A DNA stretch of 63,738 bases, the filler included, from Sluysia triapertura (lineage: Eukaryota): the NCBI GenBank assembly GCA_046118255.1. It is 5 parts of 5 records of this genome, joined end to end, with 100 filler letters (N's around TTAATTAATTAA, not from the genome) between each part and the next. Parts side by side here need not be neighbours in the genome. Positions count along the whole stretch, not along the records: positions 11,801 to 23,695 come from JBJNIA010159711.1; positions 23,796 to 39,383 come from JBJNIA010224019.1; positions 39,484 to 50,865 come from JBJNIA010185346.1; 2 more parts are not named here. One strand, given 5' to 3'. The position numbers were made by a program, and so were the translations under genes. Below the pieces are notes generated by a model. It searched no databases, was not told the DNA's origin, and was given only the letters and a program-made list of their open reading frames with translations. Positions 10,731 through 40,737 of the stretch are shown here, piece after piece (within the stretch, counting starts at the first letter, position 1; each line of letters begins with the position of its first letter).

Positions 10731-11635
10731 ATTTTTGATATTGTGAGGTCCCCTGACCAAGTTATTTTTGATAAAATCATTAAGAAATATTTAATTGAGT
10801 AATTTTGAGTTTATAATATTAAAATTGTGAATCAATTAATTGTAAATTTTTGCAGTCTACATATTTAATTTTTGCGTAGAAACTCTTGTTAGTTGCGTTA
10901 CCCTTGATTTCTTGATTAAACTATTGCGTTGTTAATATTATCATAGAATTATCTGGTGCTAATTTCTATTAAATACAGTTTATAGATATCTTTGATATTT
11001 TGGACATTTTGTTCTATTAAGATTTATTAATTGTGAGTTTAGTTAATTTTAGTTAGTTCATTGTGTAATTGTAATATTTGCATCACATTGAATATAATTG
11101 AGTAAAATGTTTTTGATCTTAACACATTTTTAAATTTAATTCTAGTTTTAAGTAAATTAATTAGTAATAAGGAGTTATTGGGAAATAACAAATCTATTTG
11201 TGTTATTGTTAAGGAAGAAACTGATAGTGATAAATTGATGTTGATTTTGCGATTATTAGATTTCATTGAGATCTAGAATAAATTATTGTTAAGTAATTTC
11301 AAAGTAATTTTGAAGATCATTATTAGAGTTCATAATTGGGTAATAAAATTATCAACATTTCTGGAACTTCAAAATCTTTATAAACATTAAATATTAAAAA
11401 TTATCATTATGTAATAATGATTAATAAAACTATTCATATTTTTAGACAATCGAAAGAATTTATGCATTAAAAATTGTTTAATAACTAAATCGATTAATGA
11501 AATTATTAACATCTTTAAAACATGTCACTGCATTTTCAAAATTTTACATAACAAAAATAATAAAATTGTTATTTTTAAGTTTAAACATGGATTTATATAT
11601 TAAACCAATTAACATAATATTTTTAATATAAATAT

Positions 11636-11638
<3 letters not shown>

Positions 11639-11695
<57 letters not shown>

Positions 11696-11700
11696 TAATA
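11639..11700 (+). repeat. (AAT)n microsatellite ending at the assembly gap
   Basis: Directly visible trinucleotide run. Confidence 0.95.
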
Positions 11701-17666: not shown

Positions 17667-18928
17667 AATATACTTAAATCAATAACTAAAATTGTGTAAT
17701 TTTTGAAGTAATAACCTTGAAAACAAAAAACCAAAATAGTTTGAAAAATTAATTACATAAATTCTCAAAGCGTTCTTAAAAATCAATGTATTCTTCCTTT
17801 ATAAAATAAAATGAAAAATAAAATAAATATTTATTCAAATATATTTTGTAAATACACATATATATAATATTATATTATATATATAATAGTATATATACAT
17901 ATATAATTTTTTTAATGTTTAATAATACTTATTCAAAAATAAAAATTGATTAATTTATGAAAATAATGTTAAAAATATCTAAGTCAGGTGGTTTATTTTT
18001 TTCTTAAAATTATTTTTATTTAATAAAAGCAATTTAAACAATTAAATGCCTGTGTAAAATCAGACAGTATGAAACATGAAATCATTAATAATTGAATTTT
18101 AAGTTAAATAAATATTAGGCAATATTTAATAACTTCTAATAAACTAACAGGGAAATTTCCTAGAAATGACTAACGTTAATTTTCCTCTAAATATGTCAAT
18201 TAAAAAATGATCTCCAAGAATTATTTTTATAAGTAATAATCTAAACTAAAAAATAAAAAATTTTGATATACATAATATACACTTTAAAAATAAAATGATA
18301 CAAAATCTTGAAAATGTCTATGATTAATTGTGATGTAATATTTTTAAGTATTTCCTTTTATAATTTCTCGTTATCCGATCGTTGCAGTTTTTCTTAAAAT
18401 TAACATAAGGCAAAATAAAATTGAGCAGGATTCGGTTACATTAAACGTCTTATGTCGCAAATTGACGTTCCTGTAACTATAATTCAGCAATTCTTAACAT
18501 ATCATTTATCTTAATTTCAGTATCACTTCGAATTACTCATAAAAATCTTCTCTTTAGTATGTAAGTATACTCTAATTTACTGTAAGAAGGTGTCAAAGTA
18601 ATTGCTCATTTTGTTCATTATGATTTTAAATACTTTTAATGTAATTCGTTCTTGTTTACATTCTTTCTGGTACACTTTATCAATCTATTTATTCTTTAAT
18701 GAAAATAAAAATTGAACAAATGATTATATTTACAATTACATTTACTATTACTATTAGGAAGTAAAACAGATTAAGGGATAAAACAATGATTTAGTATTAG
18801 AATTAATGTATAAATATAAATTTAATTCGATTTTACTCCTTAATATATCGGGAATTGAATATATATATTTTTATAAATAATTTTGAGTCGATTTTAAGAT
18901 GCTAATTTCTAAAATTTTATTACCATAC

Positions 18929-19062
18929 TGTTGGGGTAAAGGCTTAAAATTCCATTTGGAATAACTGACTATAATAATATTAAAATGTTAGACGGGGCTG
19001 ATAGCTCAGTGGGTAGAGCTCCTAGGTTCGATCCCGGTCAGTCAATTTTATGAAGTCTAACA
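18929..19062 (+). mobile_element. tRNA-carrying TGT...ACA element, copy 1 (anticodon arm deleted), 4-bp TSD ATAC
   Basis: TGTTGGGG start; internal TGTTAGAC; A box TAGCTCAGTGG; B box GGTTCGATCC; TTTT; ends GTCTAACA; ATAC at 18925-18928 and 19063-19066. Confidence 0.8.
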
Positions 19063-19085
19063 ATACAACAAATAAAACATGATTA

Positions 19086-19243
19086 TGTTAAACTTCATAA
19101 AATGGACTGACCGGGGATCGAACCTGGGAGCTCTCACTGCTCATTTCGATGCTCTACCACTGAGCTATCAGCCTCGTCTAACGGTTTTATTTTATTATTG
19201 TGAATTTTACCAAATGGCATCTTAGGCCTTTTTACCCCCAACA
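19086..19243 (-). mobile_element. tRNA-carrying TGT...ACA element, copy 2 (most complete cloverleaf)
   Basis: Minus strand: TGTTGGGGG...GTTAGACG AGGCTGA TA GCTC AGTGGTA GAGC...CCAGG TTCGATC CCCGG TCAGTCC ATTTT ATGAAGTTTAACA. Acceptor, D and T arms mostly pair; anticodon arm does not. No TSD. Confidence 0.8.
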
Positions 19244-20311
19244 ACTCCAATCCAAGCGGCTTTGCTAAAAGGATAATATCGCTATCGGTGTTGGAATATC
19301 TGTAGTAAAACTGGTTAGCGAATTATGATATTAAAAAATGTTGATAAATTAAAGTAAGATGGCGACTGAAGAAGTATTGCTTTAAAAACAGCTAAAAATT
19401 AAAATTTCTGACAATAAAATTGATGTTAGTTTATATCCCAGTCATCAGAAATTAGGAATCGATGTGTTGTTTGTGTAACTCAAATCATATTGTTAAAATC
19501 AAATATATATTATGTGTACAATTAAATATGTATATGATTATTTATGTTTATAGGCATTAAACTAAAATCAATAAAAAGTCAATCAATATTTTAGAAGTTA
19601 TTATAAATTTGTCTAATTTAATTAAATAACGTATTTGGAGTTGTCTAAAATTAGATTTATTTAAAATTAGGTAAGATATTATTTTAAATTTTAATAATTT
19701 TAATTTTATTACATTAAATTTTAATAATTTCTGGTTACATTTTAATATTTTTAAATTTATATTTTTTTTGTAAAGGGGTACATCCATTTTTATATATGCT
19801 TTAATTTATATTGTTTTAATGACCACAAGGTCATTCATTCTATTTTTATATAAATAGACAATCATTTTGTCATAATGTCACACAAAAAAACGACAAGTCA
19901 ATTTTTGTAAGCATCTTTGCTGATTTTAAGAAAAAAGGGAACACTTTCATAGCCATTCTAATTTCAAGAATTCAGCCTTGTCTTTACAAACCTTATCGTT
20001 AGTTTTTTATCATTAATTATATTTACAGTATTTACAACTGTGTATTTAAAATCTACGCAAAATCCGAATATCACCTTGCTACTGTTTTCAAAGTAGCGTA
20101 TTAAAATCAAATATTTTTAAATCTATTACTTAAAGGATTATCTAAAAAGGATAATCCTACCAAGTTGATATTGTAATTATTTTTTTTATTATTTTATTTT
20201 TATTTATAAACATTTGAATAGAATTTTGTTTGTTAATAAAATATTTTATATCATTTGTTAAAATCTTGATAACATTACAGATTAAAATCCACTAAAATTA
20301 CTTTTTATGGA

Positions 20312-20445
20312 AGGTTCGATTGAGAACCTAATTAAAATCTCTATAATCAATAAAGGTTCGTTTTAGGAACCTTATTAGAATCATTAAATTAAAGGTTCAG
20401 TTTAAGAACCAAATCAAATTCTTAACAGGTTCAAAGTAAGAACCT
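20312..20445. repeat. Array of four palindromes (A)GGTTC-N6/7-GAACC(T)
   Basis: GGTTC at 20313, 20355, 20394 and 20428, each followed by GAACC after 6, 7, 7 and 7 nt; spacers differ. Confidence 0.85.
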
Positions 20446-20549
20446 TATCAAAATACAATTAAAGTGAATTTTGTAAGGAAATTTAACATTGGAGCAACTT
20501 TACTTAAAGTAGTATATTAATTAACACCTCCATTTACTTTAAATTTTTT

Positions 20550-20630
20550 GACAAAAATCCAACGGCTGGCCCTAACCGGTAAGCCCAGTATGTTGGTGAA
20601 CTCATGTTAATCATGATTTATTTATTCTGA
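20550..20630 (+). repeat. Dispersed direct repeat, copy A (partner at 23430-23500)
   Basis: AAAATCCAACGGCTGGCCCTAACCGGTAAG versus AAAATCCAACGGCTAGCTCTAACCGGTAAG, with weaker similarity either side. Confidence 0.75.
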
Positions 20631-20648
20631 CACACACACACTTTTCTT

Positions 20649-20688
<40 letters not shown>

Positions 20689-20720
20689 TTATTTATTTAT
20701 TTATATTTATATTTTATTTA
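20630..20720. repeat. Compound microsatellite (CA)n/(AT)n/(ATTT)n
   Basis: Directly visible. Confidence 0.9.
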
Positions 20721-23429
20721 TATTTTAGTGAAGAAATAAACTTCAGTATTTCTTTTATTTATTTGAGAATTTTTTAAAAGAAAGTAAATTAAAAGATATA
20801 TATGAAAGTTATTATCTTTATTATACAATTTATATAAGAATTCAATGTTAAGCTCGTTTGCCTGAGAAGCTTCATTAAATAAGATTTCCAGAGGAATATT
20901 TAAAGAAATTAACGATATTAAGAAAAGTTGAATATAACCAAAAGTTGTATATTTTCCGTACATAAGAATAGAAGAATGTAGGAAATACATTTACAGTGGG
21001 AAAGCATTGAGTTTAGACTCATGGATGCTAGAATTAGTCTTGATATAAATCCTAAAGGTCTGTAGCGAGCCATAAGTTTAAGATTATTTTGAGTAGATTT
21101 GTGAACGGAAAACATTTGCACAAGCAATAGTTTTTATAAACAAAGTTGTAATAAAACAAAATAACAACTGATCTTACAAATGTAATGTATAAAAGAAAAA
21201 TGAGTTATGCAATATTGTAAATTAAAGTGGCAAGTGAATATGTTTTGAAATTGAACTGAATCCTATTTGATGGCCTAGTGATGTAGCTGCCGAATATGAA
21301 ATATTATTAAGCCGAGTGGGTTTTATATAACTTGAAAGTCACTTCTTTTAATTAATACTTTCATAAGGAGTCGATATTACATATGAGAAATTTTGTAAAC
21401 CTCTTTCACATAGTACATTCATGAAAACGTTCTTGATGTAACTAAAAATCACTTTTCAGAGTGTAAAAACAAAGTCTCGTCTGTACGTAAATGTACATCG
21501 CAAGTGAATCTTTTTGTTATCATTTTTGTATTAAATGTTTTGAACATCAGCTGTGATTTATTTCAATATCAATTCTTCATAAAAATCAGGAAGAGTTTAT
21601 TTCTATTGACATCCAGGTCTTAAATCTCATTAAGCTTGATGTTTTTATATTATTTTTTATTTTCCGTATATCTGTAGGTAATATGCGGTGCGTACTTATA
21701 AATTTAACATCAATGGGTTTAGAACTACCCAAAAAAATAATACGAGTTGATCTATTATAATATACATATTCTATTTTATAATAAAATTGTAAAATGCACG
21801 ATGATCATAAAATTTAGAAAACTTACTAAAAGTTTATCAACATACAAATCTTTTATTGTGCAATTACTGGTAAAAGTAATTATTTGCTATACTTGGATAA
21901 GGAAGTAAGGATGATCGTCGCTTCATTGGTGCAGAATGAGTGACAGCCTTGAACAGGATCATGAAAATATGATTTGCTGACTGATTGACATTTGAAGAAT
22001 CTGACAATTGTATAGATTATAAAGTTTTGGTGATATTTTATATGCAATAAATTTCCTGAATTGGATTTAGATTTTTCCATAAACTGCACTAAACTTTATC
22101 ATTGTCAAGAATGTTTGCAGGTTTATTTCGAGTTCTATTTAAAGTATTGTAATTACTAGAATTTGGAGATTCAGTTGAGATACTAGATTTAATAATAATT
22201 ATAGTGCTTTCAGGTAATTGTTTGGTATTTTGTACAAATTTTGAATGAGCGTTTGACGATTTGGGTAACGTGATACTACTTCTATTTGATGAGGAAAAAA
22301 TTTGTGCTTCCTCAAAATTGTTTTGTTCTCTTTGCATAGTACATGAATGTCAAATAATTTTAGGACTAGAATTATCAATATTAGATCCACTTGAAAGATA
22401 ATGTGGTTTAACAATTATATTAGTTTGTTTTTGAATAAAATGATGATGAATATTTTATATTTTACTCTTAGATTGTGGAGATTTATCTTCTGATGATTTA
22501 CGATTAATAATTGATGTATGAAAATCGAATACTTCGAAAATAGGGTTTAGTTGGTTAAAACTCTTTCTAATAATTTTTCCATATCAGCATGATTGAGTGC
22601 CTGACTTAGAGGTTATTAAGTACTCTTGTGTTGTAAACTGTATAATTATTGATTTTTTATACATGTATTAAACATAGTTTATGAATTATTGATTATTTTA
22701 TAAAATTATTTTGGAATTTTTCATTTGTAACGAAAGTAATTATTTTATTTTGAACTTTTAATTTAATAAACATTAAATTATTTTAATTTCTCGAAATATT
22801 TTGAGAATTTTAAAAATTGTTAATTGTTTTAATAAATAATTTAAAATTGAAGTCAAGGTCGATTCCAAAATTAGTATAAAAACCACTACTAAATTCTAAT
22901 AACACACAATTTTTTCTTCAAAAAATTAATCTTGGTGTTTTAGTTCAAACAGTACCAATTGGCAATTCTTGGAAATGATTTTTTCTTTTACATATAACAT
23001 TTATATCTGATAACTGGTTAGTTTATTTTTGTTAGGAAAGTACAACGCAAAATCAACTTAAAATTTATTAATATACATATTCACAGAAATATATAGCAGT
23101 TCTATCGTAAAATACGTTTTTACAATTTACTTTGAGTTTGATTAACATTTGGTTAATATTATAGTTGTAAAATTTCTTTTTGTGTTAATGTATATATTCG
23201 AGCCTAAAATTATTATTACTTGAGTTATTGATTTAGTTTCAAATTATTAAAATTGATTTTGAATTTAAGTTATTTGAAATTTATCGGAATGTAATTTTTT
23301 AATTTACAAATTCTTTTAAAGGATTTCTCGCAAAATCTACAAAAATAATTTAATAGCACCTTTTTAAGATTATTGATTTAATTATCTAAGCTATAAGTTT
23401 AGCATTTGACCTCCTACATTTAATTGCTT

Positions 23430-23500
23430 CTAAAATCCAACGGCTAGCTCTAACCGGTAAGTTTGCTGAATTCACCATAATCATTCTTTTATTCGTGATT
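23430..23500 (+). repeat. Dispersed direct repeat, copy B
   Basis: Matches 20550-20630 over a 30-nt core with 2 mismatches. Confidence 0.75.
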
Positions 23501-23695
23501 TAAGAAAATAAACATAGCTGTATTTATAGTGTAAGTAAATAAAACTTTATTAAAAACTTTATTAATTTAAAAATAATTTAAAAACAATTTCATTTCAAAT
23601 TTAAAATAATTTTATTTTATTTCCAATTTAAATTAACAATAATAATAATAAGAAAAAATAATAAAAATTTAATAAATAATTATCAAGGAAAAAAT

Positions 23696-23795
23696 NNNNN
23701 NNNNNNNNNNNNNNNNNNNNNNNNNNNNNNNNNNNNNNNTTAATTAATTAANNNNNNNNNNNNNNNNNNNNNNNNNNNNNNNNNNNNNNNNNNNN
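23696..23795. other. Artificial contig spacer
   Basis: N44-TTAATTAATTAA-N44. Confidence 0.97.
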
Positions 23796-23860
23796 TTATA
23801 TGAGATCTTCTTCCAACTTGGAGAATTAGTCTTGCTGCTTGATTAATTATTAATTGTAAT
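23796..23860 (-). mobile_element. CR1/L2-type LINE fragment truncated by the gap
   Basis: QLIINQAARLILQVGRRSHI; DNA nearly identical to 36225-36262. Confidence 0.6.
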
Positions 23861-26800
23861 TTTTTCACTTTTAAACGAAAAACTAAATTAATAGTGAAAT
23901 TTAAGTGACCATAACATAAATATTAAGAAAAACATTTGATTAAATTTCGAATAAATTCCTTTTTTTAAAACAAAAACTTTATACTTCCTAGTAATCGATG
24001 AAAATATGGTTTATCAATATTTTTAATACAATTTCTTATTCTACATTTTGCCGTTTTTGTTGTATTAATATTTTACCACTAAAAGAAAAAGAACAGTATA
24101 ATTTAATTCAAAGAAAATTATACTCGAGATATTATTATTAAGTAAGATATTAGTAAGTTTTTGGTGATGGTAAACAATGCCCATGATAATAATAATAAAA
24201 TAAAGAAGATATGAAAGAGAATTTTGATAAAGAATTAATGAATTTGAGGGTGTTAACAGAAATTCCATTTAGTTTATTGTTATTTTGAAATTTAAATTAA
24301 AAATTTAATGATTTTTGATGTGGTGAATGGTTTAGATGTTGTAAAAGTATGATTTTTAGTGTAGTGTGATGTATTGAAATTTTGTGTGCAGAAGTTGGCC
24401 ACCACAATAATAATAATAATGCAGTTCTTAATTGTTTTCTGTTTATAACATTTCCTTTAAATATTATTTGAATTTTTAATTAAGGATTATGTTAAAACAT
24501 TCCAACAATAATCTTAATAATAATTTATTTAATTTATGTTATTTTTATGTAATTAGTTGTTTTTATATTAAACTTTTTAAAAAATTTAATCAATTTAAAT
24601 TTTGGTCAATAAAAACAATGTTTTTCAAAATTTTACATATTTTGTAGAATTTCAAAATAATTTTGAAAGTTTTGTAAACAAAGATTTTCGATAGAATCTT
24701 GTGATAGTGTATTTAAATGTATCTTTATTAATTAAATGATTGATATACTCATTGAATAATCAAAAATTCGTTGATTGTGCTGCCAAGTTTTGTAGAATTT
24801 CAACCCATGGAAGTAATCTAATAAAATACACATATCTAAACATATTGTATTTATGTTTATTGAAAGATTTTGAATTTTACGAGAATCACTTTTATAATTT
24901 TGAATAAAAATTATTTCATTACACAAATCATTATACCTACAATCCTTACAAGTAGGTAAAGAATAAATTGACCATAATTTTCTTAGAAAACAAATTGATT
25001 CAGATCATGCGAAGGTTTTCGTTGTGTGTTACCTGATGAGTCTCAGTTCTGCCGAAATAATGATAACAAATTTAAAATTGTTGTTGCCAAAGTTTCTGTA
25101 CTAAAGTTGTACTTCTCATGTCTCTCTCAAATTCGATGAAGATGCAGCGTAACGACATGTCCCACATGTCTAAATATAACATGTCTGGAGATTTTGGAGG
25201 TAAGGAATTAACGTTAAAACTTGTCTATATTTCCATTAACAATCTTTATTTTCATGTTATTTATTTTAGACGGTTTATTCTTCTCATCAATAACAATGGA
25301 TCATGGAACGAAGAGGCGTGCAATCCTTTAACAATACCATTATTAATGTTTTACAACTTACGAGTTTTGTGTAAATTAATATATTCCAATTTTAGGTCTT
25401 TTAGTTGTTATCACTTCTATAAAAGTTTTCAATCAAATAACTATGAAAGTCTAAAGATAGTAGGAACGAGCAAAGAAATAACAAAAAAGGATAACAAATT
25501 TTATAAAAGGCCAAATTGTCATATGATTATCCAAAAAACCAAATTTATCACTGTTGTACAAGAACGTAAATACAAAAAGTATAAATTTTCGATTAAATTT
25601 TCACAATATGAAACACTTTGTATTGATGATCACATGATCACTCGAGATAAACCCATACTAACTAAAGATGTAAGTAACTTAATACTCTCATGGCGTAACG
25701 TCAGAGCATTCCAACCATTAAATTTTATTGATAGCGATGACGAGTCCAATATCTTTCAGCACATTCGGCTGTTTTTGACAATAAGTCCTCAATGACCTTC
25801 GTAAAGATATCCGAGCTTATCAACAGACGAACAGATATACTAAGCCCCATACTAGTATCGTAGGCGAAACTCAAAATTCAACTCATTTATTGGTAGGTAT
25901 AAGTCTGTCAAATTCTTATCTATATTTTACGAGTTTTGATTGTTCAGCTTATGTTTAATTATTAATTGTTATAGGTTATAAAAATGTAAACAGAACTTTT
26001 AGTCGAACGCACATTATAAGAAATAATAGCTTAAAACTGTTTACTTTTCATTATCAAAGTGCAATTTTCATCAATGAAGTTTGTTTCCCGAGATACAACA
26101 CTATTAATTTTAATGATATTTTGATTGTGTATTTTTAAAGTTTGTGTGCATATATTATAGATTTTAATATTGTGTTTTGAATAATAATTTTTCATGGCAT
26201 GTAAATAAAAATACTTCGTATATTCTAGACATGAAAAGTATTAATATACTGTGTTTTTATTTGGGAGGAAAATTACAAAGAGAATATAATTTGTTTCCAG
26301 TTGTATCTATTTTCACACTTTCGTATGCTTTGTTTTCAGTTATAAATAAACAATATTGCATAATTTTTTATCTGATATTCCATTAATAATTTCATTTTTT
26401 TAATTTTGCTTTGTATAATTGGTTGCTTTAATTTAGCTTGATTCCAAAAATAATTTACGAATCACAAATGTTGTAACTTTATGTTACTGTGATGTTATTC
26501 TTCCTGAACCCAGAGATAAACAAAATCAATACCAAATTACAAAATCAAATACAAAGAATTAATTTAATTTTATTAATTCTTAATCAGAAAAGGATAAGAA
26601 AGAGTAACATCACTAAATATCATTAATAAATATCATTAATACGACAAAGCGCTGATAAAACTGAAGTTATAGCGTGTGACACTCAATGTTAATGATGATG
26701 ATTGTGATAATTTAAGGGTATCGAGGTTAACACAGTTAGGTTTTAATCTAAATAATCAGAAAAGTGACTCTAACTTGCATAAACATAAATACAAGACTTT

Positions 26801-27747
26801 GTGTTGTCTCAAACTATTCTTTAAAAAACAATCATCCAATCTTAATACACCAAAATAGTAGAAAATATTTAGGATTTTGTTCCACATTAGGTCTTTTGAC
26901 CTTAATTCTGTCAGAGGATTCAAAAAGGAGAGGATAACGAATACATGGTTAATAAATCACGTAAATCGATCAATAATAAATGTCAATCTATAACAATAAT
27001 GCAGTTACTAATACTATTATTAAGAATAATAACAACCGTCCAATTATAATTTCCTCTTGTTATAAATAGAAATGAACCATGATAAGTCCCAAGCATTGGT
27101 TCAACTTTTATCATTTCATTTCTATTTAATTTTGAATGCAAATGAAATTAATTTTCATGGTTTTATTTTATATTGTTTTACTTTTAAGACAACACCTCGC
27201 AAAATTTTTTAAAACTACTAAATTATTCAAGTACCGATTCTTAGCGACCTAACACTCCCGATTAAAACCAAACTTTAGAATAATACATTAAATTACTTTA
27301 ATATATTATTCTAGAATTTTTTAATTTTTATTTAGTGGACTATTTGTAAGAACAGATTTTCAAGGGATAATTTCAGTGCATTGTGATAGGAAATTGTGTA
27401 TTACATTTAATGATATCTGCGAACTGGAAATTGATGACTGACTCCGAAATTTGAAATTAGAACTTTTTCTGAACATTGTGTTAGTTTTAGATTTTTGAAA
27501 CTGGGCTAAGAAGTATTTAAAATATAAATTACATTAAAGTTGAAGTTTTAAAAATAGCTGACATCAAGTTAAGACTTTCCTATGAATATGAGTTTACACT
27601 TAAATATTCTACAAATCCTACATATTTCATTATTTTACCCTGAATTTCCGTTGAGAATTTGTCGTCCTGATTTAGAAACAACTTTTCATGTTTCTTGGGT
27701 TCTAAAAATGAGCCCCTGATCTTCACATATTTTAAGAGCTATAAGCC

Positions 27748-27749
<2 letters not shown>

Positions 27750-27797
<48 letters not shown>
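27750..27797 (+). repeat. (AAT)n microsatellite
   Basis: Directly visible. Confidence 0.95.
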
Positions 27798-27800
<3 letters not shown>

Positions 27801-29849
27801 TATCATAATATTTGTTAAAAGACCTTATAGTTTACGCAATACCGCGCAAACTTTTCATAGACATACCGAACTTTACAATGTCTGCTTTTTGCGTGAGCAC
27901 ATATTTAATATCACGTAGGGAACATCTGGACAAAACTATTGACTTGCGGATAACAATTTAATAAAACCGAAGAAATGTCAACAATTTATTTGCCATGATT
28001 TGTGATAATCAACCGAAACACAACCAGTTGATTGTGACTCTACTTCCTGTAAAAACAATTCATCTTAAAATTAGATACCCGAGTTATTTAGTAGGTTCGT
28101 TCTACTTGTTTCTAATGTGGGCAAATTGTATTAGTTGAATATGATCAAAATATTGGGTCTCCATGTAATTAGTCAACCAGCACACTAAGGTTTATTTGTA
28201 TAATACAATAACTACAATTACAAAACTATAGTGTAAGAAGAGCATGTGAAATCATGTTTAATTATGTATTTAGAACATCTAATATTTAATAAGATCTCAA
28301 ATAAAAAATAAATAATAAAAGCAGGTAACATAGATGATACATTCAATCATTTGATGTTCATCGATGAGATCCTCGAATGCCTTATTTTGACACAGTATCC
28401 CAGTGATACTGATCTTAACAAAAAAGAAAATATATATGGAAATACACAATACAATAAAGAATCATTACTAACACAAAAAGGAAAATGAAAAAATGAAGTA
28501 AAAACTACAACAATCTTCTATTGTAAATAAGAAAGTTGATTTTTTTATTTTAGTTTATATTTAAGTAATAATAAAAGATTAATTATATTTCAGACTGGAA
28601 ATAAATCTTACCCGAAATTATCATCAATGTAAATAGTCCTTATTCGAAATTCAATGAATGTAAGTAGAGGGATTCGATGTTAATAGATAGTTTCAATGTT
28701 ATAGACAATCGATTCCTGATACTAATTTTCGTCAGACGTTCCAAATAAATATTGGTTCACAAATTCTATTATTTATTTTTTAAGTGTGTTCGTTGATATT
28801 TATACTGTTTTTTGATAATTCCAATCAAATTAATTTTAAAATAACACAAATCAATGTATTTTCGACTCATGATTAATTTCGATATAATTAATAGAACATG
28901 AAATTGTAAAAAATTATATTTCTGTAAGTTGGTTAATGTAAAATTTAAGACTTAAGATTAATAAATATAAATTTTAAATCGAAGGTGATATTGAAACTAA
29001 GGCCCAAATTAATAAAACCTGAGCATCAGCGTTGTGTATTGATAAAGTGTAACAGTACAGAATGCACAAAAATAAAGAACGGGAACGTAAAATGTGTGAA
29101 TATAAAGTACATGCACACTTATATAAACATGCTCAATTTTAAAAAATAGACTTTAACTACTCAAACTAACTTTGAACGGTTTGAAGACCGAATAATTTTA
29201 TTTGTAGAAAATTCATTTTCAATTGTTACACAACTAGAAATTTCTTCTATTTTATCTTAACTAAGCTATCATTACTTAAGAATGCGAATAATATGAACAT
29301 CTTTAACATCTTCGTACATTTCATTACAAAATAAGGCAACCTTTTCAAACTAAAAGTAGTACTTAAACAAAATACATAATATATAATTGTATATCATATA
29401 ACGCATAATTGTATCATATAATTGTACTAAAATAATAATAATTATCATTTATTGAACTTTGTTGTTTATTTTAAGATTTTAATTTCCAATGGAGCTCAAC
29501 TGTGTTAGACCAATATCATAGGGGGACTCACAAAACAAAAATTAAACTATAATTTATTAAAATCCAAAACAAGCACGTTTTCACACTTCATATACTTGAA
29601 AATTTCTTTTATACAGATAACTCAAAACTTTTTCAAATTCTTTTACTCACTCAGCTCTAAATTAATCAAATGACTCTATCTAATTCATTCTCTTTCTCAA
29701 TTAGACTCTCTCTTTATGGCTTTATTCTAAATAACTTTTACTTAATTTAATTTTGGAGATTAAGTTCAATACTGGTCACCGTTCTTAAAGGTGGAGGTGC
29801 TAATTTTTAAATCACAAGCTAAATCCCAAAACAGAAACGAAAGAAAGCT

Positions 29850-30330
29850 TTTGTATGAAAATTTTCGTGCAATAATTTTTAAATAAATTCTCTATAAAAA
29901 TTTAACAATATATTATAAAGTCTATAGTATATATTATTTGTTATTTTATTCATTCAGCTGAAGTATCTCTTTAAATCATTTTAGACTAACTTTCACTTTC
30001 ATTACCCTCATTCAAATGGGGTGGCAGGTATATAAAAATGAACATTTCCGGCATCTACTCCTTTTCTATTTCCGCTCCATGTCGAACCATCTTACTAGTC
30101 TCACATTTGAAAAATAAAAAATAACAAGATGGATTGAAGAATTTTCGACAAAAAATCACCAAGCTTCTTCAAACTGTCAGAGCGGTGGAAGTGATCGATT
30201 GTGACGGAAAATATCTCACCGACTGAGACTGAGATATTTGTTTTTTCTAATGATTTAATAAGTTCATTTTGTTTTCTGGAATTTTTTGCATTGTTTTTTT
30301 ACTTGGTGCACGAATTTTTTCAATAATAAA
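29850..30330 (+). mobile_element. Internally deleted mariner-like element
   Basis: Imperfect inverted termini AAAATTTTCGTGCA (~29858) and TGCACGAATTTTT (~30308); C-terminal remnant ERW..VIDCDGKY near 30180-30215. Confidence 0.5.
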
Positions 30331-31501
30331 ATTGATTAATTTATATTTATTATTAGTAAATCAATTAACTTTTGTAGCTCATATTTTTCTTTAATTTAAA
30401 TATTTTTTAATAATAATTTATTCAATCAATCATAAATATTTAAATATTAGCATTCATTAAAGTATTCTAAACATTCGTTTTGATTCAGGTATTTTCTGGT
30501 TCACCATGATTTATCAAATAAACATTTCATTGACGCGTATCCAACATTCAAATCATTAATCAAACATTCGACACGTTCATTTTATTTTATTTGAAGAAAT
30601 ATTTACGTTCATACGTAATAAAATATTTACATAATTTAATAAATCTGAAAATCGTCTTACAATTTATTAATTTTTTTACTGATTTATTAATTAGTTTTTC
30701 AAGAAAATCATTAAATATTGTACACACTATTATTGAAAATATTGGAATATTGTAAATAAAGTTAAATAAATAAATATTAAATTATTTTTTAAAATTGTTT
30801 ATAAATTTCAAGTCATAAAATAAATTAGAAAATTGTAAAATATTCTTAATATTTACAATAATTTATTAGATATTTATTGTATATTTATTATATGTTTTAT
30901 TAAAAATTTACATCGTTCACGTAATAAAAATCAAATTAAATCATTTAAAAATTATTCCACTATGATGAATATCGAAAACAAAAACATATAAAAGAACACT
31001 CAAAGAAAATAACAACCGAAAATAGATTTTTCAAATCTACCTAAGGAAATTTTTAAATCTTTGATTCGACAACAAATTATCTCAAGAAATTTCAAAGAAA
31101 ACAGTTAAATTGTTTAAAGAAAATTTGGAAAATGATTCGGATCCAGTGTTATCTTTATCAAAGATTGATACTTATTGTGGAGAATCTATATTATAATAAT
31201 TCATTTATGTAAAGTAAGATAATTGTAGGTTTTTTTTATTGCTGTAACAGTTAGCATTAAAATTGTGACTTAAAATCTTTAAAGTTTTTGAAATCCAAGT
31301 ATTAAGCCTGGATTAAAATATTACTAAATTACCATTTAATTAAAGAAGTCATTTCTTTATTTTCAATTATATATTTCATTATACATTTCATTTGTCATTG
31401 ATTAACGTTTTTTGTAGTTAATAAATTCTTTTTGTATTATTTTGGTTAATTACTTTGATAATTTCAAAAGAATTAAAGAGAACCACCTGAGTTAAACGAT
31501 T

Positions 31502-32450
31502 TGTTAGAAAAATATAAATAAATTAACTATAACATAAAGCACCGTTACTATAAGTTGTTGAGTAGACAAAATAAGGACAAGAAATATAATAAATATATAA
31601 TTCTCTTAATTATTTCCAAGAGTAGAGAAACACTTATACGTAGAAATTTCTGTAGATACGTCCACTTTACTTTGTAAATCGTATACTACAGATGAACCTG
31701 TTTTAAAATTTATAATTGTTAGGTAAAAAGTGGGAAAATAACCAGCAATTATTTGGCGGCCGAATTGGGACATACTGACATTAAGTAACTAAACGTTTAA
31801 GCTAAGAATAAATAATAGAACTTAAGTGTTTAAGTTTTAAAATATTTTGTGAATTTAATAATTGCATTTCGTTTTTAGGTTTGACATAACCTTTTAAGAA
31901 ATTGATAAAGAAAATAGAAGTGGGCTAAGTAGAATTAATTCTTTAGAAAATATTAAGATTAAAACTAAGAAAAATATGGAAGAAACAGTTGAAGACTTAA
32001 GGGATTGCATAAGATAGCTCTCTGTTAATATGAAACCTGCAGTTATTCTTCCGGAAATGAGGAAGACATGTGCGATTTTCTTTTTGAATTTGACAGCGTC
32101 ACAGAATCCAACGGCTGGTCAGAAATAGAGAAGATTAAAAGAATTAAGAATTATTTGACAGGAGTTATTATTCGCGATACAAAGGTACAAAGATATAGAA
32201 CAAGAGAAAAAGAAAGATTGGACTACCTTTTTAAATGCCTTCATAGAAGAAATAGCTTTAGATAACATAGGCAAATATTACCTTAAAATGTTAAATATTA
32301 GGAAACAAAAAAGCAACGAAACGGTATCGAATTCACATGTGCGTTAAAATGTTTAGTAGTTAGAGCTAACGAAAAGAAAGAAGCAACATTAATAGACAAA
32401 TTTTAAAATGGTTTAAGACCTGAATTGCAGATGTTTGTAAGCTTAATAGA
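31502..32450 (+). mobile_element. Gypsy LTR-retrotransposon remnant: probable 5' LTR, tRNA-Lys-like PBS, degenerate gag
   Basis: TGTTAG start at 31502; PBS-like TGGCGGCCGAATTGGGAC at 31754-31771 (15/18 to the tRNA-Lys PBS TGGCGCCCGAACAGGGAC); gag DFLFEFDSVTESNGWSEIEKIKRIKNYLTG, KQKSNETV, LIDKF*NGLRPELQ. Confidence 0.75.
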
Positions 32451-34441
32451 TAATTCACCGTTTAAAGTAGTAAAGAAATATCCCTATGGGAGTAGGGGCT
32501 TTCTTTTCTTTATTGCTTTTAGATTTTAACATTTTAATAGACGATCGGTCTAAGTTTAATGTAACGTTTTCTCTAATACGTGATGGTTTACTATTATAAC
32601 ATACGTGCTTAAGGCACTTGAAATATTTTAGATTATAAGTTTGAAAATAAAAGTCAATATAAAAACACATTGAAATTTTATTAACACTACTTTTAAGCGT
32701 ATCCACAATTAGTTTATTACGACATAAATTTTTAACTAAATAAACATTCTTACGTGAAAAGTTATCGACTAGACAATCATGTTGAAGTAATAAAAAAGTC
32801 ATCAAATGTTTATAAAATATAAAAATTAGAAGGCCACGAGATCTCATAACAGTTCTTCTTCTTTCGAATCCGTCTTCTTGATAGTTTGATTCCGCCAATG
32901 ATGCACCAGCTGCCTGTTCGGTTCTGCCACCAGTATCGTAGGGTTCTAACAATTCAGTCCGTTTACGCGTATCTTCGTTAATAGAGGATCTGTTCAGCGA
33001 TCACTTCGGTTATGTAAGCATCTTATTTACTGACATTTACTTCGTGGTAATGAGCATTGTTACGTTTGATTTTATAATCATTATCTTTGTAGTGCTTAAC
33101 ATCGTTATCGTCTTTATATTCTTCGACATTATAATCATCATCTTTATATTGTTTAGCATCATCATTACCATCTTTGTATATAAAAGTCAAAAATGATTTA
33201 TAATATAGAAACTGGAAAGTTTCTTTTGAGACTTCTGTCGGTGTTAATTAATATTGATTGAAAATATTTACAATTAAGTCAGTATTGGTTAACTACTTTT
33301 CACCAAGTTGAGCCCTATCCAAGTTGGTTTTGTTGGCGGCAGTTAATTCATAACATTTCACTAAATTTTAATTCACGTACTCTTAGTTTCGGCGAGTTCA
33401 GTCACATTGATGGTTGAATGTCATCATTTAGCTTTAGCATACGATTGTTTAAATTTTATCATAATCTGAGTTTGCTTTATTATTATTATTATTATGACTA
33501 TGACAATATTAATTTAATTTAATTTTTATCATACAATTTTTATTTATGTTTTTCTCTATCATAAAGTGGTTTAAATAATTCATTAATTAAATCTGTTTTT
33601 CATCATTAGATAGTGGAATTTCATTTTCAATCTAATTCAAATAAATATTTGTCATTGTTAATGTACAAATGAAAAATTTATTTCGAAAATTCGTGTTACA
33701 TTGTGACAATGAATTAATGATATCTAATTCTTTGCCCTTGTAGAATTTAAATCCAGGGGCTTTTTTAAGCAATACACTTTTGAATATTGTAGCAATTGGA
33801 ACACTAATAAAATTTTGTTCGTGTGTTCCTAAGTACTTCCTTAGGACGGTTATCAGACGCTTTATCGTTGTACTGTATGAACATTAGGTAATTCGATTTT
33901 TTATAATTGATATCCTTTTAATTTTTTTAAATTAATTTTATTTGGGCACTCAGGACAATGCGCTTCATTCAGTGAAATGTGAATTTGCACTGATGTAGCC
34001 ACTTCGCATTTGATTGGTTTGTCAAACTAATTTTGACTAAAATCCATAATATCATTAAGGCCTAGATCAGGCCATTTCTAATTAGAGATAATATTCCAAC
34101 AATGCTATTAAGACATGAATTGAGCCACCACAATTGTAAACTAGATTTGTTTCCTTTTCTGTGTTTATGATCATATCATATAATTTACCTCATACTCAGT
34201 GAACATTTCTTGTTTCAAGCAACTTTAAAATAAATCTAATATTATTTATTATGTCCTTGAATTCGCATAGAGATATTTTGATTTCTTCCAAGATCATTTC
34301 TGATTCGAAACACAATATTAATTTGTTTTGGGCTTAGCCGTAATTTCTTTGCTTGTTATATATTTTGAGGTAATTCCCATTAAATAAATAAATTATTATT
34401 TAGAATGAAACTTTATACGCTTATGTTAAATATTAATTTAG

Positions 34442-34729
34442 AAACGATGAAATTGATCAACAAAATGATAGTCGAATGAATTTTTATGATAATCAAGAAA
34501 AAAGACCACCATTCCGAGGTTCTAGGGGTGGTTTTCGTAGAGGTACAGGGAATTTTCGACGCGGTAATCGAGGAGGTCGACGTGGCCGCGGAAGTTTTAG
34601 AAGAGACGGCGAAGGGCAAGACAATTTACAGTAAGTTTTAGTATAATTAAACAAAAATTTAATATATTTCAGACCTAATGCAGGATTTAACGATGGTAGT
34701 TCAAAAGGGCCAACAGATTTTGATAATGG
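34442..34729 (+). CDS. Two orphan exons encoding an RGG/RG-rich segment of a putative RNA-binding protein
   Basis: Exon 34442-34630 (NDEIDQQ...RPPFRGSRGGFRRGTGNFRRGNRGGRRGRGSFRRDGEGQDNL), 42-nt GT-AG intron, exon 34673-34729 (PNAGFNDGSSKGPTDFDNG) in frame; flanking exons not identified. Confidence 0.6.
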
Positions 34730-35896
34730 GTTGGATAATAAATTTTTGATTTAATGCATTTCTAATTATATATACAAATCTTGTTCAAAGTTCATAAAAA
34801 CTAAACATGCTTATTTTTAAATAAACAATAATATGAAATTATGATTTTATGAAATTTAATATATTCATTATTCAAAAAACAAATTAAAAGAGAATCTTTT
34901 AGAAAATTCAATAATTTTCAAGGATCCAATTTTTATTATAAGATAAACAAAAATATAAATCTTAGTATAAAATCAGTTTCTTTGCATCATTTAGTCGCAT
35001 GACGATTAATTCTTGAATTGTATGCACACATTTTTAACTTGGACATGCATATACTCGACTCTTTTGTCATTTCATTCTTAAAATTTTTGAAACAAATTCA
35101 TTGAAAATTTAGAATATATTTTGTCGAATTTTAAAGAATTTTCTTTGACAGAATGCAAGTATTTTCTTGCTTAAAATTTTTGGTAATTTAAAATAACAAC
35201 AATTAAAATGTGATATATTTCATATTACGAACGAAAAATTTTATTAAGGTAATCAATTTTTTATAATAACGAAATCTTATATTTCGAATTCCGGTTTTTT
35301 ATCGTCCATCCTGTATGAATCTTGTAAATCATAAATCTTATAAATTATCTACTGTATGATATATCTAAATTAAAATAAAAAATTTCAATTATTAATTTTT
35401 AATTATCAATAGTTGGAATTTCACAAATTTTAATGTAGGCGTGATATTAATTGCTACAATTTAAGAAGTACAAATGCGTAAGATATGTAAAGTATGCACA
35501 CAAAATAAAATAAAAAGTGAATTTAATAAAATTTAACAGTTGGCCAAAGTTTTGATTTTAAAATGTTCATTTTAATTTCTAATAACAGTTTCATGATTTA
35601 TGGCTTATTTATCTTTGATGTAGTCCTATAAATATATGTTGTCCGCAAGATTTGCATAATATTAAGAATGGTGAGCTAAAATAATGTTTTATTTATTTTT
35701 AATAAGTTTTAATTCAAAGTAATAACAAAAACAATTGATTGATAATGCACCGTTTTTTGTTTCAACTTAGACATCAGGAAATTATTTTTTATGTATGGCG
35801 GAATATTAGATATAGAAATATTTCAAAAACTATTTACTTTTCTCGAATAATAATAATAATATATTAATTTATCTACTGCGTAAGTACTCAAAGTGC

Positions 35897-36262
35897 TTAA
35901 GGTAAATCATTCACTATGATATTTCTGAAACAGAAAGAACTTTGCTTTTTTCTTAAATATTTCATAATCTTCCAGTAATTTGACTGGTTGTATATTTTTG
36001 AGACATAAACGGTATACAACCTATCACCTAGCTTGTTATCACTGTGGATTCTGCATAGATTATCATGCCTCAATGAAATATTCATCTTGGTTTCCAATTT
36101 TCGTATTATTTCTAAAAGATATTCAAGACTTCCGTAATTCATGCATTTGTAAAATATTGTCATGATTTTAAATTCTATTCTTGCTTTTATTGGCAACCAA
36201 TATAATTCTCTAAGATAAGGTGTTACATGAGATGTTTTTCCAACTTGGAGAATTACTCTTGG
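35897..36262 (-). mobile_element. CR1/L2-type LINE 3' fragment
   Basis: RVILQVGKTSHVTPYLRELYWLPIKARIEFKI matches the HxTPxLxxLHWLPxxxRIxFK motif. Confidence 0.8.
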
Positions 36263-36479
36263 AGAATATTTTATTTAGTTATAACACCAACCACCTGCAA
36301 TATTAAGTATTAATAAAATTTGGTTAAGCAGTCCATACTTAATAGGGTATAAAATCACTAGCTACTCAGTTTAGAGAATGTTTTTTTATTTAAGTGTATG
36401 AAATGATTTTATTATCTAAGTTTGAGTATGTACTGCATTTATTTTCGAATTATGTACATACAGTTTGATTTTGCAAATC

Positions 36480-36760
36480 TCTCATTTTAACTAAAACTTC
36501 TTCCAGAAACTTGAACACTTCTATAAACGGAACATTGAACGTTTTTCAGTTTTGGGAGTCCTATTGTAATTCGTTTTATGATGCTAGTATTAGTTTATGC
36601 AGAAATAATTATTCTATTTTAAATAATTCTGTTCAGAAAATGCATGGTATAATTCATAAAGTATTTACAAACATAATTGAAAATTTCTAAAATATAGGTG
36701 TTGATGCAATTTTTAATGCAGAATAGTTCACATAATTTGAAGAATTACTCGCAACTATAA
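36480..36760 (+). mobile_element. Possible BEL/Pao gag (DUF1759-like) remnant
   Basis: KLLPE...NGTLNVFQFWESYCNSFYD resembles LPxxxLxxFxGxxxxWxxFW; highly degenerate. Confidence 0.35.
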
Positions 36761-36854
36761 AATAACAAAAAGCTACTTTAATTTAAATGCTTTAATTAAT
36801 CAAATATCTTGAAAATGTGTTACCTTGATTTTATAATTATTAAACTATACTCAC

Positions 36855-37951
36855 CTCAGTTTTATCACACTTTCGTAAATTCTTAATTTCGGCTGCAGGA
36901 TTTATTTTACTGTAATTCGTTCCCTAAAATATCACTTAAATCAACATGATAAAAAGTAGCACAGAATTTATTTAAAAACAATTACATATTCACATCAAGT
37001 AAATTATTGCATTGTAATTTGAATTTAAATTTTGTAATCAAAAACTAACAACTTTTGTGGGTGTTTCAGGTTTTGAATTACATACTACCGCATTAAAAGG
37101 CTTTTCTTTATCTTCAGGTGCAAGAGGCTATACGTGTTATGTTTAAAAGAATAATATTTACTTTGCTCGATATAATTTCCATAAATGAAGCTCTATTTCT
37201 AGAAATTTCAGAGAGTTCCTGTCATTTTTAAATTGATAATATATATATATATATAAAGTACTTGTTGCCGAGCTATTCTAGTAGAATTAGGATTATTGCA
37301 TTCACCTTTAACTACATTAGTTCTTTCGTACTAAAATTCATAGGTCAACAAATAAAAAACTACTGTTTTCTTAGATTCATTGTGATAACTATAATTTGAT
37401 CCTGACGCTGAAGCAACCTTCAGCATGATTTCTTTTAAATCTAAATCTTGTTCACTTCTTGCAGTTATTGTTACATGAAGTGGCTACATTTACTATGATA
37501 GTAAAAAATTCTTACTCTACATAAGGATTGAATTTTTGATGAATGCTGTACCGATGCGGTTTTAAAACTATGATCAGCACCAGATCCTTGCTAAAAATAA
37601 AAAGGAAATAACAATTTTTAATTTTTACCCAATGGATAAATAAGTTTTTCTTCAATTTGGTATTTGGATCTGTCACGGATGCAAATCCGTACATTACTTT
37701 ACTACCGTGAAATTCTTCAAACATATCTTCAAGAGAATCATCTAATTATAATGAAAATATAATTGCATTTTGAGATTACCTCCTGTTTCAATAATATCAA
37801 TTGTACAATCATGGCTGTAACCTAAAATGACCCTTTTAAAATAAATTCAGATTAATTATATAACACATTCAAACCATGAAAATTGGCCATTAAATAATGA
37901 ATTTAAAGCGTCTCGAATTTTATTGCCATTAGTATTTAAATCAAGATCCAT
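36855..37951 (-). CDS. DBNL: Drebrin-like/Abp1 actin-binding protein (ADF-H domain), 5' portion
   Basis: Exons 37951-37875, 37832-37780, 37741-37629, 37590-37516, 37483-37364, further small exons, then 36923-36855. Translation MDLDLNTNG...WVILGY...EEFHGSKVMYGFASVTDPNTKLKKNLFIHWQGSGA...HVTITARSEQDLD..IMLKVASASGSNYSYH...GTNYSKINPAAEIK. Confidence 0.85.
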
Positions 37952-38646
37952 AGTTAAATGTCAAATACAGAACTAAAAATGGAAAACATATGAATAAGTA
38001 AATTTCAAAAGACAAAAATAATTAAAATTACATTTCAAATAAATAATTTTGAAAATTATTATGCGCAATTAATATACCAAATTTCTAAAAATTTAAAAAC
38101 CTACAAATATTTATGCAGACATGTACACTTACATTGTATAGATATTATTTCTTATTATTAATACTTTAGCTATTAATTTAAATAACATTATTATTTTTAT
38201 TATTATAAAATTTTTATTATTAAATCTAGTTTACTAAAATTAAATTGAATACGAATTTTTCCTATTATACATTATTAAAACATTGATATTGTATAAATTA
38301 CAAAAATGATTAAAAATTTTCAGATAAAGGAATGTATTAGGTTCTTCAAAGATATATATTTATTAATACAATTAATATAATTTTTCAATTAAAAAGAATC
38401 TCACACAAAACGCCTTACCAATTACAGCAATAATATTATTAAACTTGGTGATGATATATAAATGCTCCATTATGGAAGTCCTCATGAATATCTTTTGGAG
38501 ATATTAAAAATGAAGAAACTAAACTCAGTATGGAATATTAATTTATTTCATTGTCTTATAACCATAGAAAATTATATGCACGTGTGGTCGAACTAATGAA
38601 ATTGGTGGGTATTTCAAAAAATCTACCAATAAATATTTAATGATAT

Positions 38647-38802
38647 TGTTAGACTTCATAAAATGGACTGTCCGGGGATCGAACTCGAGACCATCGCTGC
38701 GCAGTTCGAATGCTCTAGCAGTGGGCTATCAGCCCCGTCTAACAATTTTTAGGTTAGAATAGTCAACCATATTAAGTAGCACCTCAAGCCTATATCCCAA
38801 CA
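38647..38802 (-). mobile_element. tRNA-carrying TGT...ACA element, copy 3, 4-bp TSD ATAT
   Basis: Minus strand TGTTGGGATATAGGC...TGTTAGACGGGGCTGATAGCCCACTGCTAGAGCATTCGAACTGCGCAG...GAGTTCGATCCCCGGACAGTCCATTTTATGAAGTCTAACA; ATAT at 38643-38646 and 38803-38806. Confidence 0.8.
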
Positions 38803-38899
38803 ATATAATGAGTCCACCTGCGATCATAGTTCTTAGGATTTTAAATAAGCAATATAAAGGAACTTAATGGACGTCGATAACAATAATTTTCAATTTGGT

Positions 38900-39383
38900 T
38901 TAAGTGTTGCGATTGCCTAGTTGTAGATCAGAAGATGAATGTGAAACATGTAGAATTATTATATGAAAGAAAAAACTGATAAAAAGTGTAAAATATTTGA
39001 GAAATAAAGTCATTGTTATTGGTATGAAGAACAAATCTAGTATAGTAATAATTAACATGGAGAAGTAGAAAAAGGAATCAGAGAGATGAAGGTGATAACA
39101 TCTAGAGCCTCATGAATGCCTTACAAACTACTGAATAAATTTAGAGTCTTAATAAACCCTTTAAACAGAAAATAAGATGAAGTCTAAAAATAGATTAATT
39201 AATTAAAATCTTAATTAACTTAATTAAGAAAAAGTGCGTTTTTGTGAATAACTTTTGAATGCGGAATGCTATGTTGAATTTGAAACTGTGTGTGTATTTG
39301 TTTTGGAAAGACCTTTCGATGAAGGTATGGTTTGACCGAGTTCATGCAAGGAAAGCCTTAATATTGAGCAAAGTCAAATTTTA
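38900..39383 (-). mobile_element. Penelope-like element remnant (GIY-YIG endonuclease region plus adjacent repeat)
   Basis: LGQTI...SAFK remnant (cf. YIGQT...SA..H). 39055-39340 is homologous to 46905-47160; 38920-39040 is homologous to ~5915-6060. Confidence 0.55.
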
Positions 39384-39483
39384 NNNNNNNNNNNNNNNNN
39401 NNNNNNNNNNNNNNNNNNNNNNNNNNNTTAATTAATTAANNNNNNNNNNNNNNNNNNNNNNNNNNNNNNNNNNNNNNNNNNNN
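39384..39483. other. Artificial contig spacer
   Basis: N44-TTAATTAATTAA-N44. Confidence 0.97.
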
Positions 39484-40585
39484 ATTAATGAAAACAGACA
39501 GATATTCTTATAACTATAGGGTTAACAATGAAATATTTACGTTACAAGTTAATGTAAATTGAAAAATAGAAATTTGAATTGATTTCGAAATTTACAAATT
39601 GAAGGTTAAGTGATATTTTAAATCTGAATTAAGCTCAGATACGAACTTATTAAAGTAAACTAATGCCTAACTCTTAGACAATCTGTGTTTTAAATATTAG
39701 TCAATTCGACAAAATTGCGATCCCATAACTATGTCGCAATAAAATTGAGAAATCTTAGTAGTCAAAATTCAAATTCGGAAATAAATTTGTAGATTAAGTA
39801 AAATTTAATAAATAAATTGTTTAAAATAAATATATTAAGTTTCCAGTGCGCATTGTAAGTGTATGTAGTACTCTCCATTTTATTATACAACAGTGTACCT
39901 TTTGAGTATTTTATTTTAGTGAATACAAAGTACTATTTATCAAAGTACTCTTTATGTCACTGAAAAAATTCTGGCTACAAAGCCTCATTAAAATTATTAT
40001 TATAGTTACTTTTGTTATCTTTATTATTATTTTTCTGTTATGCAATTTAGAATCATTATTTTTTATTAAAAAAACATTATTTTTATTATCTTCTTAAATA
40101 TTATCATTATTATAATATTTATTATAATAATATTATAATATTATAATTATTATTATTAGACGTTTTTAAGATTTTTGCATGTTAATGTTAATGCCTTAAA
40201 AATTAAACGGAAAATTCTTAAACGCATTTACTTCGAAGCTTAGACTTTCATATGCAAGTAAAACTTAACCAATTTAAACTAACTGTGATTTATAAACATT
40301 CTCTTGGAAAAGTATGCTTTTCAACGTAGTTTGATTATTTTATACAAAGTAAATTGAATCGTTATGTTATTGATTAAACGTTATTTATCCACAAAATTTC
40401 AAATTTTATTTATTGTTGTCTAAGTTTTTTTAAAACTATTGTAAGCATAAAATATAATTCTTGAAAACTCATGCTTTTATAGTAATGTTGTTAATGATTC
40501 AGTATTTATATGCTATTTTTTATTTGTAGGCAGTGGTAGCATGCCGTTCATAATAATAAATCTGGAATTATAAATATTGATTATT

Positions 40586-40737
40586 TGTTGTGATACAGGC
40601 TAAAGTGACAATTAGAATAACGATAGTATTATACAATAGAATAAAATTGTTAGACGGGCAAAGCATCGAACTGCACAACTGTGAAGTAAGAGGGCTCGGA
40701 TTCAAATCCCGGCCAGTCCATTTAATGAAGTCTAACA
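40586..40737 (+). mobile_element. tRNA-carrying TGT...ACA element, copy 4 (A box deleted)
   Basis: TGTTGTGATACAGGC...TGTTAGACGGGC...AGCATCGAACTGCAC...GGATTCAAATCCCGGCCAGTCCATTTAATGAAGTCTAACA; no TSD. Confidence 0.7.

Follow-up and report, generated by a model that had tools for sequence, protein, structure and literature searches.

The analysed window (the whole stretch of 63,738 nucleotides from the Sluysia triapertura assembly GCA_046118255.1, with a G+C content of about 25%) is made up of five contigs of 11-16 kb each, with N spacers between them. The window contained eukaryotic genes (an alpha-mannosidase, a DDX3/PL10 helicase in two exons, and an exon with a GYF domain) and the subject of this report, a repeat about 155 bases long that encloses a decayed copy of a tRNA. 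The repeat occurred five times, as four complete copies (c1, c2, c3, and c4, on contigs 2, 2, 3, and 4 of the five, respectively) and one partial copy (c5). All four complete copies were recovered at the coordinates and strands that an earlier note on this DNA had given, while c5 was found by an nhmmer profile built from c1-c4, in which c5 was not included (E 1.5e-8). Beyond these five, the profile search of the window produced no match below E 4. The copies, with the target site duplications (TSDs) around two of them, are as follows.

7005..~7099, + strand: c5, 5' half only, cut within the A box
18925..18928, + strand: left TSD of c1, ATAC
18929..19062, + strand: c1, 134 nt, ends complete, both boxes (A and B) intact, anticodon region shortened by a net 21 nt
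18986..18993, + strand: inner TGTTAGAC of c1, the reverse complement of the final 8 nt of c1 (19055-19062)
19063..19066, + strand: right TSD of c1, ATAC
19086..19243, - strand: c2, 158 nt, tail to tail with c1 across a 23-nt gap, without an exact TSD in the window
19103..19174, - strand: tRNA-like segment of c2, with acceptor stem, D arm with A box, and T-arm sequence with B box
38643..38646, + strand: left TSD of c3, ATAT
38647..38802, - strand: c3, 156 nt, complete, more than one change in the A box and a single one in the B box
38803..38806, + strand: right TSD of c3, ATAT
40586..40737, + strand: c4, 152 nt, ends complete, A box and D arm lost, without a TSD

The order of parts was the same in each complete copy: TGTTG, an AT-rich leader, the motif (T)GTTAGAC, the tRNA-like segment, a run of T, and an end in ...TAACA. 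The copies started with TGTTGG (c1, c2, c3, and c5) or TGTTGT (c4), and the leaders of c1 to c5 were 57, 60, 58, 62, and 66 nt long, respectively. The inner motif was TGTTAGAC in c1, c3, and c4, with one change each in c2 and c5, and the 3' end was GTCTAACA except in c2, where it was GTTTAACA. Termini of the form TGTT...AACA were present in 4/4 complete copies, and the outer ends were inverted over 4 nt plus one position only (about 4-6 nt), as in a long terminal repeat (LTR). The B box was found in all four complete copies with at most one change and TTTT in three of them, while the A box was intact in two (c1 and c2). The TSDs of c1 and c3 were exact at 4 bp and failed at 5 and 6 bp; the empirical chance of an exact 4-bp TSD was 0.0105 per copy, and 6.5e-4 for at least two in four copies. 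The inner 8-mer matched, as an exact reverse complement, the final 8 nt of the copy in 3/4 complete copies (chance about 0.002 in 140 nt), and this 8-bp repeat closed the predicted fold of the inner unit in 4/4 (z -1.1 to -2.4). Two other TGTTAGAC sites in the window (29503 and 43614) had no cassette, and 2.0 such sites were expected by chance. The two exact TSDs and the 8-bp inverted repeat around the cassette were thus as the earlier note had reported them. The layout which it described as common to all four copies held for the ends, the leader, the inner motif, and the B box; it did not hold for the A box, and TTTT was missing from one copy.

The tRNA-like cassette did not resemble a working gene. 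ARAGORN at its default threshold called 0 tRNA genes among the copies, and at a relaxed threshold called 2/5 copies, c2 among them, both with the anticodon undetermined. The c2 segment scored 34.5 bits against the Rfam tRNA family RF00005 (gathering score 29) and had no regular anticodon arm, and the tRNA parts of c2 and c3 folded no better than shuffled sequences (z -1.05 and -0.54, respectively). A functional tRNA gene was therefore rejected. Both c2 and c3 retained a G3:U70 pair and A73, which we take to be alanine identity elements. The leaders were 59-75% identical in pairwise comparison (47 +/- 4% when shuffled) and the last 40 nt of the copies 80-90%, while the first 26 nt of the cassette were 73-92% identical among c1, c2, c3, and c5 and 59-65% identical against c4, which has a deletion there. 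The stronger conservation of the cassette and tail relative to the leader fits selection on a promoter and an RNA intermediate. A faster decay of the anticodon arm, also claimed earlier, could not be upheld, as it depends on the deletion in c1 alone; c4 has lost the D arm and A box instead and has kept the anticodon segment.

The abundance of the repeat was assessed on a sequencing run (X1), the sole run matching the window DNA (0.86 of words) and possibly the source of the window, so that it is not independent of it. Among the runs listed in the look-up, none from RNA matched the window DNA. Comparison of the X1 contig records with positions 18880-19300 (c1 and c2) at 80% likeness gave 10,138 matching records. 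The summed depth was 16 over 19255-19300, 78,664 in 19225-19239, and up to 1.7 million inside c2; depth in this run is not a copy number, and a rough bracket for the 3' end is 3,400 to 107,000. Loose ends were found at the 3' end (19085/19086) in 91 and 210 records, with a median of 255 nt and an agreement of 0.43-0.44, and at the 5' end (19238) in 93 records starting with AACA, with an agreement of 0.49. These loose ends are fixed element ends followed by unrelated AT-rich flanks, and the repeat is therefore a dispersed, high-copy family. Five copies in 63.4 kb correspond to a density of 79 per Mb (95% range 26-184), or about one per 13 kb, and from this and the run we infer that the genome carries at least thousands of copies. 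The depth in X1 was low over the anticodon region of c2, at the same places where most matching contigs differ from c2, and so reflects the changes of c2 itself.

The tail-to-tail pair c1 and c2 makes a 315-nt inverted repeat, which lies about 1.5 kb upstream of the first exon of the DDX3 gene. An Rfam match to MIR5380 (55.9 bits, gathering score 150) was rejected because it is the hairpin of this pair. Other X1 contigs carried copies linked to one another in a comparable or nested arrangement, a possible hint that new copies insert close to older ones. Pattern scans gave 0 matches in viral contigs, 0 in prokaryote genomes, and, in metagenome contigs, 0 in one scan and 1 in another; this single match had no leader, tRNA part, or end motif and was rejected as chance.

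Taken together, the repeats of about 155 nt are probably solo LTRs from a small LTR retrotransposon that is non-coding and of the Helenus (TRIMp3) type, in a planarian-like flatworm host. Helenus was described by Kojima (2024, Biology 13:119, PMC10886601) for terminal-repeat retrotransposons in miniature, or TRIMs, whose LTRs bear a tRNA sequence, and membership of the flatworm repeat in this group is likely. That the copies are solo LTRs of a TRIM with a tRNA-derived RNA polymerase III (Pol III) cassette had been proposed in the earlier note and remains the best explanation, while the tRNA analogue of the plant element Cassandra that it proposed is not a new kind of element, because the structure had already been described as Helenus (PMC10886601).

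The promoter boxes are better conserved than the leader, which points to an RNA intermediate. With the leader upstream of the presumed Pol III start, it would be restored from RNA only through strand transfer of the LTR type from a second copy, which predicts a parent that has a primer site and a purine tract as well as two LTRs. In such a parent, transcription by Pol III would begin close to where the tRNA-like segment of the left LTR has its 5' end (about 60 nt inside the element), and the transcript would pass the weak T4 run, then the primer site, a short inside, and the purine tract, and would end past the right LTR's tRNA-like segment. R would then be the tRNA-like segment, U3 the leader of about 60 nt, and U5 the tail of about 17 nt. 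Reverse transcriptase and integrase would come in trans from a Gypsy element, in keeping with the 4-bp TSD, and recombination between the two close LTRs would leave one LTR within a TSD, as found in the window. The inner 8-nt repeat could pair in the RNA with the last 8 nt of the LTR and close the tRNA-like domain just ahead of the primer site, and the stem may present this site; the repeat might otherwise mark the former 5' end of an LTR that was once shorter and has since grown.

Several results weigh against Helenus-type solo LTRs. In the window, 0/4 complete copies were paired with a second LTR, 0/5 copies had a TGG in the 8 nt downstream or more than 4 purines in a row in the 25 nt upstream (as expected beside a primer-binding site or polypurine tract), and there was no autonomous partner element. 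An exact TSD was not found at c2 and c4 (2/4 complete copies), and the c2 flanks in X1 differed by one letter (place 19245), which gives a 3/4 TSD match (one contig, depth 16). The window density implies a copy number above that of the largest Helenus family counted (5,575 LTRs), and short-motif searches of the accessible part of the supplement of PMC10886601 gave no family with the same cassette ends. Finally, no shared flank was present among the 6 of 348 X1 loose-end rows listed and no joint of a 3' end to a 5' start among the 15 of 24 joints listed, in which a single collapsed internal contig would not show. The lack of pairs is nevertheless expected and is weak contrary evidence, because only 142 of 1,939 loci were full-length, and most were solo or partial copies, in the account available of ta-TRIM, a TRIM of taeniid tapeworms with a TSD length of 4 bp in 52 of 57 cases (Koziol et al. 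2015, PMC4558846).

If there were no two-LTR parent, the single LTR-like unit of about 155 nt would itself spread, in thousands to tens of thousands of copies, which is improbable. Such a unit would be a Pol III cassette with an 8-nt terminal stem and integrase-type ends, mobilised from single or head-to-tail units. An unlikely DNA counterpart of this idea is a non-autonomous miniature inverted-repeat transposable element (MITE), of the Ginger type (as raised in the earlier note) or another with TG...CA ends, which has captured a tRNA or the head of a short interspersed nuclear element (SINE) and is moved by an integrase-like transposase. Every complete copy seen is a single unit, the length is uniform and the copy number high, and the absence of a shared flank among the X1 rows listed is also as expected of it. 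The TGTNR ends (here TGTTG and TGTTA) and the 4-bp TSD agree with those of Ginger elements in the accessible text of Bao et al. (2010, PMC2836005), but the terminal inverted repeats given there are about 40-270 bp in Ginger1 and 45-297 bp in Ginger2, against 4 nt plus one position here, and the repeat failed this test of a Ginger-type MITE. The targets also differ, being CCGG or CCGT for Ginger1 and RTATAY with a TATA TSD for Ginger2 in the portions available of PMC2836005 and PMC3845634, against ATAC and ATAT here (n=2). Moreover, a DNA element has no need of A and B boxes kept better than the leader across diverged copies, and the literature search returned no tRNA-derived MITE with a Pol III promoter.

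It is quite unlikely that the copies are solo LTRs of a full-size coding Gypsy element, or of a large derivative of one transcribed by RNA polymerase II, in which the cassette recruits TFIIIC or is a passenger and is not the promoter of the genomic RNA. Solo LTRs look identical whatever their parent, the ends and 4-bp TSD are Gypsy-like, and AATAAA was present in the leader of 3/5 copies; against this, AATAAA is frequent by chance at 25% GC, and all described tRNA-bearing LTRs of this size come from elements of 311-1,263 bp (PMC10886601). No gag or pol was seen beside the copies among the 18 of 29 long open reading frames scanned and the six frames of 7100-11700.

It is very unlikely that the repeat is a SINE derived from a tRNA, extended at the 5' end by an unusual fixed sequence and mobilised by a long interspersed nuclear element (LINE). 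The tRNA-like A and B boxes and the high copy number are shared with SINE2 elements, of which Sm-alpha of Schistosoma is a flatworm example (accessible part of PMC2770079), and decayed LINE-like pieces are present in the window. In SINE2 elements, however, the head is at the 5' end and the tail is LINE-like, whereas the tRNA part here is internal, beginning about 66-70 nt inside, with a leader of 57-66 nt and the 8-nt motif ahead of it in 5/5 copies; the 3' end is fixed as ...TAACA in 4/4 without a simple tail, both ends are of the integrase type and sharp in X1, and both TSDs are 4 bp. An ordinary SINE, which the earlier note had also excluded, is thus set aside. The inner unit of about 98 nt bounded by the 8-bp inverted repeat, seen as a mobile unit inserted into a separate leader sequence, is extremely unlikely, as its perfect repeat in three copies and its closed fold in four are outweighed by a homologous leader on 5/5 copies, TSDs that flank the outer ends instead, the absence of an inner-boundary loose end among the X1 rows listed, and the chance-level TGTTAGAC sites without a cassette.

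The two larger genes of the window are as follows.

1210-4278, - strand: lysosomal alpha-mannosidase (GH38), single exon, with an unbroken frame of 1,022 codons
11938-17398, - strand: DDX3/PL10 helicase, two large exons with about 3.8 kb between them

The nearest relatives of the alpha-mannosidase were 52-53% identical and gave no placement of the host. The best single-domain match of the DDX3 exon was DjVLGA of Dugesia japonica (55% over 94% of the exon, 342 bits), while helicases of parasitic flatworms reached at most 278 bits and four multi-domain proteins outscored DjVLGA. In a quick tree of 19 rows, from which the multi-domain matches of Macrostomum were left out and in which one row was a triclad, the exon was sister to Dugesia with a Shimodaira-Hasegawa-like support (SH-aLRT) of 99. 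Because the exon groups with Dugesia, the host most likely belongs to the triclad planarians or is closely related to them, on the basis of one gene and one triclad row. A bacterial promoter and terminator scan found 0, a type of scan that is not applicable to a eukaryotic host.

Further dispersed repeat pairs, 70-90% alike, were observed at 39046-39340/46890-47155, 5-118/47389-47500, 35847-36097/55723-55936, 23796-23834/36223-36261, and 41414-41499/42353-42432. The pair at 35847/55723 overlaps a frame resembling the end of a LINE protein, as seen by eye and with no Pfam match. A decayed, GC-richer, transposon-like region extends from 7100 to about 10400 and starts at the break of c5 inside the A box; the 3' half of c5 was not found in the window. 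A fragment at 8405-8731 (+ strand) resembles a Ulp1/C48 protease (Atlas score 0.95; Pfam scan negative), and motifs like those of an APE endonuclease were seen downstream of it, by eye only. Pfam on six frames of 7100-11700 returned nothing useful, with one match below the cut-off. The region possibly represents a broken LINE that landed in the tRNA-like part of c5.

If the repeats are Helenus LTRs, Platyhelminthes would be the seventh animal phylum, beyond the six named in 2024, and an LTR would probably have captured a tRNA promoter independently once more. The apparent abundance would make a practical case for testing the claimed Pol III transcription of Helenus in a group with good laboratory tools. 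The repeat could also mislead tRNA and microRNA annotation, as in the spurious microRNA match at c1 and c2. No new class of element is opened by the flatworm repeat. Were the single unit itself mobile, it would supply a missing link that connects SINEs, TRIMs, and MITEs, with TFIIIC sites possibly spread throughout the planarian genome.

Among known systems, Cassandra and Ajax are alike in having a Pol III promoter from a small RNA inside the LTR and differ in that the sequence is from 5S rRNA and not tRNA, the Ajax TSD being 5 bp; Pol III transcription has been shown for Cassandra alone (PMC10886601). The ta-TRIM of tapeworms is, like the repeat, a flatworm TRIM with TG...CA LTRs (about 198 bp), whereas its transcripts are polyadenylated and its tRNA is a primer only and not within the LTR; this comparison is by description, from the part of PMC4558846 available, in which ta-TRIM is also reported as not found in Schmidtea. 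In Schmidtea genomes, Gypsy elements are abundant, and the words tRNA, SINE, and MITE do not occur as whole words in the accessible text (PMC11410931). A count of 19 tRNA pseudogenes in Schmidtea mediterranea (accessible part of PMC2770079) would mean that a comparable family is either missing from this species or decayed beyond the reach of that scan.

The closest likeness is with Helenus, whose LTRs carry a box A (TRGCY, YGG) and a box B (GGTTC) (PMC10886601). Helenus is defined by two LTRs, a primer-binding site, a polypurine tract, and a primer site shared with an autonomous Gypsy element; whole elements are non-coding and 311-1,263 bp long (screen limit 1,000 bp), and those of animals have LTRs of 104-323 nt and 4-bp TSDs and are thought to be Gypsy-dependent. 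Several families are known only as solo LTRs with the internal portion undetermined, and several origins have been proposed (PMC10886601). The flatworm copies share the TG...CA LTR of about 100-320 nt, the order of leader, tRNA-like part (containing an A box and a B box), T run, and short tail, the 4-bp TSD (ATAC and ATAT, in 2/4), a tRNA unlikely to be functional, and the commonness of solo LTRs. The LTR of the oyster family Helenus-4B_SaGl has, by eye, a similar inner inverted copy of its own 3' end upstream of the tRNA, so that this bracket is not unique to the flatworm copies. The differences are the flatworm host, a copy density that seems above the published Helenus counts, and the TGTTG start, which is nearer to fungal families, as animal LTRs mostly start with TGTA, TGTG, or TGTC in the families accessible in the source. 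The first 20 nt and the tRNA 3' end of the copies also resemble, by eye, the LTR of the fungal family Helenus-1_AmAr, which may be chance among more than 200 families. Platyhelminthes is not among the six animal phyla named for Helenus, and the word occurs 0 times in the supplement (PMC10886601). The open literature searched, with Repbase, Dfam, and subscription papers outside the search, held no report of Helenus in flatworms or planarians, and PMC12859917, as far as its text is accessible, merely cites Helenus. The idea of the element is already known from Helenus, and it is only the host group that looks new.

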